IMG/VR virus record: IMGVR_UViG_2534681705_000008
Source of the DNA: a virus
Lineage: Duplodnaviria > Heunggongvirae > Uroviricota > Caudoviricetes
DNA length: 20,352 nt
Direction: 5' to 3' (one strand)
Shown: piece by piece, positions 15,227 through 15,720 of the stretch
Position numbering within the stretch: the first letter of the stretch is position 1
Layout: the number at the start of each line of letters is the position of its first letter
Notes under the pieces: generated by a model
What the model saw: only the letters and a program-made list of their open reading frames with translations
Databases searched by the model: none
Told to the model about the DNA's origin: nothing
Made by a program: the position numbers and the translations under genes

Positions 15227-15460
15227 TTAATGCAGCCAGCTGTCGTCTTCCCACACCTTCTGCATAATTTTCATCACTTGTTTTCTTTCTTCGTCCAGTT
15301 GCAGTCCGGTTAGTTCCACACCGTTAGAGCTACCTTTGCGAATGCGAATTACCGTTTTGGGATACAGGGGGCGCAGATTGCGGTAAAGCTCGGATTCAAG
15401 GGCGTCCAGGGTAGACTGGCTAATCTTCTGCTCTTTATCGATCATTATTTCAATGCGCAT
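15227..15460 (-). CDS. DinI-family protein (SOS-inducible; 186 Tum C-terminal-domain-like)
   Basis: 77 aa from the ATG at 15460 (MRIEIMIDKEQ...KVWEDDSWLH), similar to E. coli DinI; SD GAGGTG upstream; the track ORF is extended to 15532. Confidence 0.8.
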   Translation of the reverse strand: MRIEIMIDKEQKISQSTLDALESELYRNLRPLYPKTVIRIRKGSSNGVELTGLQLDEERKQVMKIMQKVWEDDSWLH

Positions 15461-15470
15461 AAAAGTCACC

Positions 15471-15659
15471 TCAGCTGATGACATCCATTGAGCGGTTGTA
15501 TTCGTGGGTTCTGATTTTTGCCATGAGTTCATCAGTCAATTCAGAAACCCACTGCAGAGCCAGCCCCTTCTCTTCATCACTACACTCACTAGCCGCTACA
15601 AGCTTAAGAAAAAAATCAATGCGCTGGAGCTTCAAAGACTCCAAAAAATAGTCCTGCAT
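15471..15659 (-). CDS. Small protein, first gene of the SOS operon (possible Tum-like antirepressor N-terminal module)
   Basis: 62 aa from the ATG at 15659 with GGAGG upstream; the longer track ORF (to 15761) would run through the LexA box and promoter and is unlikely. Confidence 0.45.
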   Translation of the reverse strand: MQDYFLESLKLQRIDFFLKLVAASECSDEEKGLALQWVSELTDELMAKIRTHEYNRSMDVIS

Positions 15660-15700
15660 CTTTCCTCCTATGACACCACACGCAACGCTGTATGCATAAC

Positions 15701-15720
15701 CACTGTTTATATTTACAGTA
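15701..15720. promoter_or_regulatory. LexA (SOS) box CACTGTTTATATTTACAGTA at the promoter of the tum/DinI-like operon
   Basis: Perfect CTGT-N8-ACAG core at 15703..15718, AT-rich spacer; located between the A stop (15813) and the operon start. Confidence 0.75.

Follow-up and report, generated by a model that had tools for sequence, protein, structure and literature searches.

The predicted LexA-controlled gene pair beside cos in a P2/186-family prophage is very probably a split form of coliphage 186 tum

Introduction

The SOS antirepressor circuit of the coliphage 186 type has been known since the 1990s. In 186, the antirepressor Tum is made from the LexA-regulated promoter p95 and sequesters or inhibits the phage repressor CI (PMC7708051). 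The locus studied here raises the question of whether two small, separate genes behind a LexA operator, a 62-aa ORF followed by a 77-aa DinI-family ORF, form such a circuit. They lie in a 20,352-nt stretch of a Caudoviricetes genome (hereafter the window; IMG/VR record IMGVR_UViG_2534681705_000008). An earlier note, made from the sequence alone, had compared this arrangement with the tum region of 186, but had left open whether the two ORFs correspond to a split or two-module Tum. In this work, we followed up the comparison computationally, and we are confident that the operon is a split form of coliphage 186 tum of the Fels-2/PSP3 type, an arrangement that has already been described. The two ORFs are therefore called tumA (62 aa, ORF1) and tumB (77 aa, ORF2) below.

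Results

Layout of the operon and its genomic setting

The window is part of a prophage of the P2/186 family (Peduoviridae), and the 900 bases around the operon are 95–99% identical to many Escherichia and Klebsiella phages. On the minus strand, the end of gene A is followed by a putative −35 hexamer, the LexA box, a leader, the 62-aa ORF, a spacer, the 77-aa ORF, a hairpin, and finally cos (Table 1). This order, with the operon enclosed between gene A and cos, is common to 186, PSP3, and Fels-2, and in the window 205 nt separate the DinI-like gene from the right cohesive end on its downstream side. The first 13 nt of the cos sequence GGCGTGGCGGGGATACGAG are identical to the annotated cos of 186 (GGCGTGGCGGGGAAAGCAT), and the right ends of 186 and PSP3 also match in the stretch that precedes it, CATAAAGCGGGCA. 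These matches at cos and the right end indicate that the operon occupies the position of the p95 SOS operon of 186. Thus, the 186-type arrangement proposed in the earlier note was confirmed, with the same position between gene A and cos, a LexA box over the promoter −10, and a DinI-like module; the coordinates given there were also correct.

Table 1 Features of the operon and its flanks in the window
Feature	Position	Strand	Basis
Gene A, replication initiator (upstream neighbour)	15813..18236	-	ORF; homologues annotated replication endonuclease / 'nicking at origin of replication'
Putative -35 hexamer TTTACA of the tum promoter (p95 equivalent)	15738..15743	-	Read from sequence; analogy to 186 p95
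LexA box 1, TACTGTAAATATAAACAGTG, over putative -10 TACTGT (15720..15715)	15701..15720	-	Consensus match
LexA-like box 2, CAGTGGTTATGCATACAGCG, form GTG-N10-CAG, overlapping box 1, degraded	15686..15705	-	Box scan
tumA-type gene, 62 aa, predicted antirepressor of 186-type CI	15471..15659	-	Homologue of 186 Tum N-terminal half
tumB-type gene, 77 aa, DinI-family protein	15227..15460	-	Pfam DinI; similarity to C-terminal half of 186 Tum
Conserved hairpin right after the tumB stop codon	15182..15224	-	18 predicted pairs; no U tract
Terminator-like GC-rich hairpin GCCCGCCA-GAAC-TGGCGGGC, then TTTT	15067..15092	-	Canonical-looking stem plus UUUU
cos cohesive end GGCGTGGCGGGGATACGAG, right end of the phage genome	15004..15022	-	Match to 186 cos

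The 'strong terminator' that had been proposed for the end of the operon fared less well. A strong and conserved hairpin does follow the tumB stop codon, and compensatory double changes were found in 8 of its 18 pairs among six phages, but without a U tract it does not qualify as a textbook intrinsic terminator. This hairpin is probably the 3′ end of the operon or a partial terminator. On its 3′ side, GGTTGAACAACGAG (15185..15172) and GCGAGGCGTTAG (15166..15155) are invariant, and related phages diverge beyond them, so that the hairpin region (15155..15224) also marks the boundary of a variable region among related phages. A search of Rfam returned no RNA family in the window or the operon region, this hairpin included. 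About 135 nt further on and 46 nt before cos, there is a second hairpin, more terminator-like in appearance, which corresponds in the alignments to the palindrome GCCAGAGCTGGCG found close to the right ends of 186 and PSP3. A terminator scan of the sequence did not call it, because it has only four T residues, and it may have a dual role in packaging and termination.

On the far side of cos, between cos and the portal gene, two cargo genes occupy 13200..14851 on the minus strand and encode a HipA-like kinase of 304 aa and a HIRAN-domain protein of 246 aa. The pair matches components A and B of the PADLOC candidate defence system PDC-M03 (E 2e-122 and 7e-93), and among 5426 complete E. coli genomes, it occupies this locus in only 16.

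Promoter and LexA operator

The putative promoter consists of TTTACA, 17 nt upstream of TACTGT, and the annotated p95 of 186 has the same layout, with its −10 TACTGT inside the LexA site. By this analogy the two hexamers are the putative −35 and −10 of the tum promoter, although a generic promoter scan did not flag them. The near-consensus LexA operator that the earlier note had placed ahead of both ORFs stood up to closer inspection. The 20-mer TACTGTAAATATAAACAGTG (15720..15701) differs from the consensus TACTGTATATATATACAGTA at three positions, is the sole site in the window within three mismatches, and had no counterpart in 100 shuffled sequences. Its CTGT-N8-ACAG core at 15703..15718 is one of two matches to this pattern in the window, where 0.38 would be expected by chance. 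The other match, CTGTCTCTCATTACAG at 20320..20335, lies inside the ORF of an IS110-family transposase and is probably a chance occurrence, since its spacer is not AT-rich. In 10 phages, tumA-like ORFs are likewise preceded, at the corresponding place, by a box with intact CTG-N10-CAG.

Box 1 is overlapped by a second, LexA-like box, which the earlier note had missed. The geometry of the window operator is that of the pairs found in colicin promoters, in which a CTG-N10-CAG box is followed by a GTG-N10-CAG box and the two cores share one base pair. The overlapping two-box design also occurs in Fels-2, RM10466, SopEPhi, Klebsiella ST437phi4.1, and Yersinia MLG42, whereas 186, PSP3, Yersinia vB_YenM_06.16-2, and ESSI-2 have a single LexA box. 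These assignments were made by an explicit box scan, because the repeated half-sites caused MAFFT to misalign the promoter region. The likeness to colicin promoters extends beyond the spacing, as the Fels-2-type phage operator TACTGTAAATATAAACAGTGGTTATATGTACAGTA and the colicin/cloacin operator TACTGTATATAAAACCAGTGGTTATATGTACAGTA, which precedes colicin E1-like and cloacin-like genes on Col plasmids, form a near-identical 35-nt unit. The two differ in what lies downstream, namely a bacteriocin gene in the one case and an antirepressor gene in the phages. Colicin double SOS operators bind two LexA dimers, which leads to very tight repression (PMC2994835), and the overlapping boxes of the close relatives of the window should likewise hold two dimers. 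However, the second box varies in quality, with 4–5 mismatches to the consensus in colicin promoters, 4–6 in the other phages (4–5 in Fels-2 and RM10466), and 7–8 in phage 500465-1 and the window (8 in the window, where box 1 has 3). As judged from these counts, box 2 of the window appears degraded, and its occupancy by a second LexA dimer is doubtful.

The two ORFs correspond to the two halves of 186 Tum

The 77-aa ORF matches the Pfam family DinI (PF06183) over the entire profile (positions 1–63 of 63; E 6.6e-23; 81.3 bits against a cutoff of 24.2), in agreement with the family assignment of the earlier note, and it also matches the structure of E. coli DinI (1GHH) at E 2.7e-6. Its product is 41% identical to residues 71–145 of 186 Tum, 78% identical to PSP3 TumB, and identical to Fels-2 STM2726.1 at all 77 positions. 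Only 10 nt separate the two ORFs, and the GAGGTGA ribosome-binding site of tumB overlaps the tumA stop codon. A hairpin over this stop codon and ribosome-binding site was considered as a regulatory element and rejected, as it was no more stable than those of shuffled sequences (z = −0.69).

The 62-aa ORF begins with an ATG at 15659 and ends with a stop codon at 15473..15471; it is preceded by AGGAGG at 15669..15664, and the leader after the LexA box measures 41 nt. A longer 96-aa version starting from the ATG at 15761 was rejected, because this start lies upstream of the promoter and PGAP calls the 62-aa version in related prophages. The predicted protein is acidic, as read from its sequence, it is identical to Fels-2 STM2728 at 61 of 62 positions (98%), and an AlphaFold2 model shows a two-helix hairpin with a pLDDT of 88.5. 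Pfam, NCBIfam, and PADLOC contain no family that matches it, no solved structure was matched by sequence, and Foldseek searches with the model returned generic helical hairpins alone, none at E ≤ 0.001, which is uninformative. Existing annotation offers no name for it either: in the rows examined, PGAP calls the gene a 'hypothetical protein', and every PHROG family to which it belongs carries the entry 'unknown function'.

The earlier note had suggested aligning both ORFs with 186 Tum. This worked directly for the 77-aa ORF, but BLASTP gave no alignment of the 62-aa ORF with either 186 Tum or PSP3 TumA, and the relationship became visible through intermediates and profiles. The 62-aa ORF aligns with the 60-aa 'tum protein' of Yersinia phage vB_YenM_06.16-2 (BLASTP E 9e-8), which in turn aligns with residues 4–42 of 186 Tum (E 2e-10) in the same register as its match to the 62-aa ORF. 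The PHROG profiles point in the same direction, as the 62-aa ORF matches phrog_698 (3.6e-38), phrog_8554, the Yersinia type (2.4e-8), and phrog_1993, the PSP3 TumA type (2e-3), and the N-terminal half of 186 Tum matches phrog_189, phrog_1993, phrog_8554, and phrog_698 (6.4e-6). The decisive comparison was made with hhalign between 28 diverse representatives of the 62-aa family and the family of the Tum N-terminal half, which aligned residues 1–42 of both with 97.5% probability and E 7.2e-12; with shallow alignments of close homologues (Neff 1.4), the probability was 18.7%. From these alignments, we conclude that the 62-aa ORF is a homologue of the N-terminal half of 186 Tum, a link that needs intermediates or profiles to be seen. 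With the 62-aa ORF resembling the N-terminal half and the 77-aa ORF the DinI-like C-terminal half, the two together represent the two halves of Tum, and the question that the earlier note had left open can be answered in favour of a split Tum.

CI repressors associated with TumA

The prophages and phages that carry an identical or 98%-identical TumA also carry a CI of the 186 type, and where TumA is identical, in related E. coli prophages, the cI, apl, cII, and fil genes are all of the 186 type. Among seven CI proteins linked to this TumA, a small and phylogenetically non-independent sample, the N-terminal DNA-binding domains are 60–86% identical and the C-terminal domains 23–50%. Against the CI of 186 and PSP3, which are associated with other TumA types, the same seven N-terminal domains show 38–49% identity. 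This pattern suggests that TumA may recognise the N-terminal domain of CI and that the TumA type tracks that domain.

Two further observations were made on this region of the related phages. The CI proteins of PSP3, Klebsiella 4LV2017, and ST437phi4.2 are longer than the others by about 100 residues or more, and that of PSP3 contains a second copy of the N-terminal domain. The interval between int and cI carries different cargo in different prophages, namely genes for a DUF4276 protein and an AAA ATPase in RM10466 (locus 2489..4222) and for a DUF4041 protein in MB7671 (locus 2380..4056), and looks like a second variable hotspot.

State of this prophage

Upstream of gene A, the early operon contains a dam methylase gene of the D12 class that lacks its 5′ part, and homology to related prophages ends at 19583. 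The sequence after this point (about 90 nt), which matches thousands of E. coli records, resembles what we take to be the left end of IS2, and it is followed by an IS110-family transposase gene that starts at 19805 on the plus strand, so that the portion of the insertion within the window covers 19583..20352. Elsewhere in E. coli, chromosomes and plasmids carry the same junction between an IS2-end-like sequence and an IS110-family element, suggesting that the IS110-family element targets the IS2 end, and the insertion in dam was absent from the complete E. coli genomes searched. The operon argues for an SOS-responsive design, and not for the inducibility of this particular prophage.

This damage makes it possible, though in our estimation unlikely, that the operon is intact but orphaned: TumA would be made on SOS, the prophage with its interrupted early operon could not complete induction, and any effect of TumA would be exerted in trans, on other P2-like prophages whose CI is compatible. 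Besides the interruption of dam by the IS2-like end and the IS110-family transposase gene, the occurrence of identical TumA beside CI proteins with very different C-terminal domains would fit such a role, and crosstalk of antirepressors in trans has been documented for the Gifsy and Fels-1 prophages (PMC3121763). There is also a precedent in BTP5, which carries and expresses tum, and for which infectious phage went undetected whether or not mitomycin C was added (PMC7067206). However, the cI/immunity region and the far side of the IS lie beyond the end of the window, and the structural genes in the window look complete, judged by ORF length only.

Selection on the two genes and spread of the split

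The reading of the operon as a functional split tum draws on the way in which both genes are maintained. In pairwise comparisons of five phages (the window, Fels-2, SopEPhi, a Klebsiella phage, and a Yersinia pestis phage), dN/dS was 0.06–0.12 for tumA and 0.00–0.10 for tumB, at dS values of up to about 1.6. The tumA stop codon varies among the five (TGA, TAA, or TAG), and the ribosome-binding site and ATG of tumB are kept. An exhaustive search of 1.84 billion representative proteins at E ≤ 1e-3 gave 66 clusters of the tumA family, nearly all of 35–104 aa, and a C-terminal DinI fusion was found in none of them. A tumA-like gene with a LexA box and without a DinI gene is present in Yersinia vB_YenM_06.16-2 and Cronobacter ESSI-2, which fits the view that TumA is the active antirepressor and the DinI-like protein an optional companion. 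As for its spread in E. coli, 1125 of the 5426 complete genomes, or about a fifth, have the operon, and in every annotated E. coli row that we examined, the two genes are called 'hypothetical protein' and 'DinI-like family protein'. As far as sequence comparison can tell, the split is a stable design and not a form of decay.

These results bear on two further readings. The operon could be an SOS-regulated accessory unit (a moron), in which the DinI-like protein is the working product acting on host RecA and the 62-aa ORF is an unrelated small protein or leader peptide that plays no role in induction. The fact that a named family was found for the DinI-like ORF alone, the labels 'hypothetical' in PGAP and 'unknown function' in PHROGs for its neighbour, and the frequent occurrence of LexA-controlled dinI homologues in unrelated prophages (PMC3121763) would all be compatible with it. 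Nevertheless, we consider it very improbable, because the 62-aa ORF is a homologue of Tum's N-terminal half, experiences purifying selection as strong as tumB does, and has relatives behind a LexA box with no DinI gene in the Yersinia and Cronobacter phages, and because non-polar dinI deletions in Gifsy prophages had no significant effect on induction (PMC3121763). That the operon is the non-functional remnant of a fused 186-type gene, recently split by a nonsense mutation or frameshift, is suggested by the single 146-aa protein that holds both modules in 186 and by the other damage in this prophage, the IS in the early operon, but the chance of this is close to negligible, since phages of Escherichia, Salmonella, Klebsiella, and Yersinia all retain the split, including the separate ribosome-binding site and ATG, with differing stop codons and dN/dS of 0.03–0.12, the operon is widespread in E. 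coli, no member of the 62-aa subfamily has a C-terminal DinI fusion, and 186 itself has an internal GTG start from which the DinI module is produced separately.

Discussion

A functional split tum operon of the Fels-2/PSP3 type is the interpretation that we favour, and a mechanism can be proposed for it. The proposal builds on the sequence features, homologies, purifying selection, and conserved layout observed here, and with regard to LexA binding, antirepressor activity, and the role of TumB, we infer by analogy from the work on 186, PSP3, and Fels-2. In an undamaged cell, LexA would sit on the operator over the promoter −10 and keep the operon off; in the close relatives a second dimer should find room on the overlapping boxes, of which the second is weakened in the window. 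After DNA damage, activated RecA would promote the self-cleavage of LexA, and the operon would be transcribed. TumA, an acidic helical hairpin of 62 aa, would then bind the 186-type CI of the prophage and block its binding to the operators, which would derepress the early lytic promoter in a reversible manner and without cleavage of the repressor. The co-transcribed TumB probably modulates the activity of RecA filaments and thereby the strength or duration of the signal, and it is not expected to be necessary for antirepression. The unit would be closed by the conserved hairpin just before cos.

A more far-reaching possibility, which we put forward tentatively and regard as rather doubtful, is that the Fels-2-type TumA is a broad-specificity antirepressor that recognises the conserved N-terminal DNA-binding domain throughout a clade of 186-type CI proteins and is not confined to a single immunity type. 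Such a protein could cross-induce P2-like prophages even from a defective prophage, and the double LexA operator would set a high damage threshold, which would be decaying in the allele of the window.

The split form of tum in Fels-2 and PSP3 is already in the literature, and the value of the present work lies in annotation. A predicted antirepressor gene carried by roughly one in five complete E. coli genomes goes under the name 'hypothetical protein' in the PGAP rows that we examined, and as long as the labels 'hypothetical' and 'unknown function' are used, predictions of prophage inducibility will miss tumA. In addition, the double SOS operator and the tracking of CI by TumA bear on how tightly prophage induction is coupled to DNA damage and on possible cross-induction among P2-like prophages.

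Among the known systems, Fels-2 is the nearest. Researchers have found that in both Fels-2 and PSP3 the tum gene of 186 is split by a stop codon (PMC3121763, Lemire et al. 2011), and that paper cites Bunny, Liu & Roth 2002 for the description of the split tum in Fels-2. Fels-2 shares with the window the 10-nt junction TGAGGTGACTTTTATG, the promoter, LexA box 1, and the position after gene A. The two differ in box 2, which reads CAGTGGTTATATGTACAGTA in Fels-2 and CAGTGGTTATGCATACAGCG in the window, and downstream of tumB, where Fels-2 has other genes and the window runs directly to cos.

PSP3 resembles the window in that two genes follow a LexA box in the interval from gene A to cos, and the hairpin after tumB and the motif GGTTGAACAAC are common to PSP3 and the window. 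Its GenBank record describes tumA as 'similar to 5' end 186 tum; UV induction of prophage' and tumB as 'similar to dinI and 3' end of 186 tum'. As reported, the upstream gene of PSP3 carries the antirepressor activity, according to a personal communication cited in PMC3121763, and the inhibition of CI and the induction of the prophage by UV or mitomycin C, known for 186 (PMC7708051), are reported second-hand for PSP3 and Fels-2 in the former paper. However, the TumA of PSP3 belongs to a different subfamily (phrog_1993), whose sole link to the 62-aa ORF is the profile match at 2e-3; the LexA box of PSP3 is also a single one, its leader is some 21 nt shorter than that of the window, and its CI is longer, with a duplicated N-terminal domain.

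Coliphage 186 has the LexA-repressed promoter with the box over the −10, the same position in the genome, and an N-terminal antirepressor module together with a C-terminal DinI-like module, the latter being also made on its own, through an internal GTG start. It differs from the window in that both modules are fused in one 146-aa Tum; its N-terminal module is only distantly similar to the 62-aa ORF, at the level of profiles, and its downstream gene orf97 has no counterpart in the window.

The dinI-gfoA/gftA operons of the Gifsy prophages are comparable in that they are under LexA control, combine a DinI homologue with a small antirepressor, and work without cleavage of the repressor (PMC3121763). 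Their gene order is reversed relative to that of the window, with dinI first, and the Gifsy repressors are grouped with DicA and RacR (PMC3121763).
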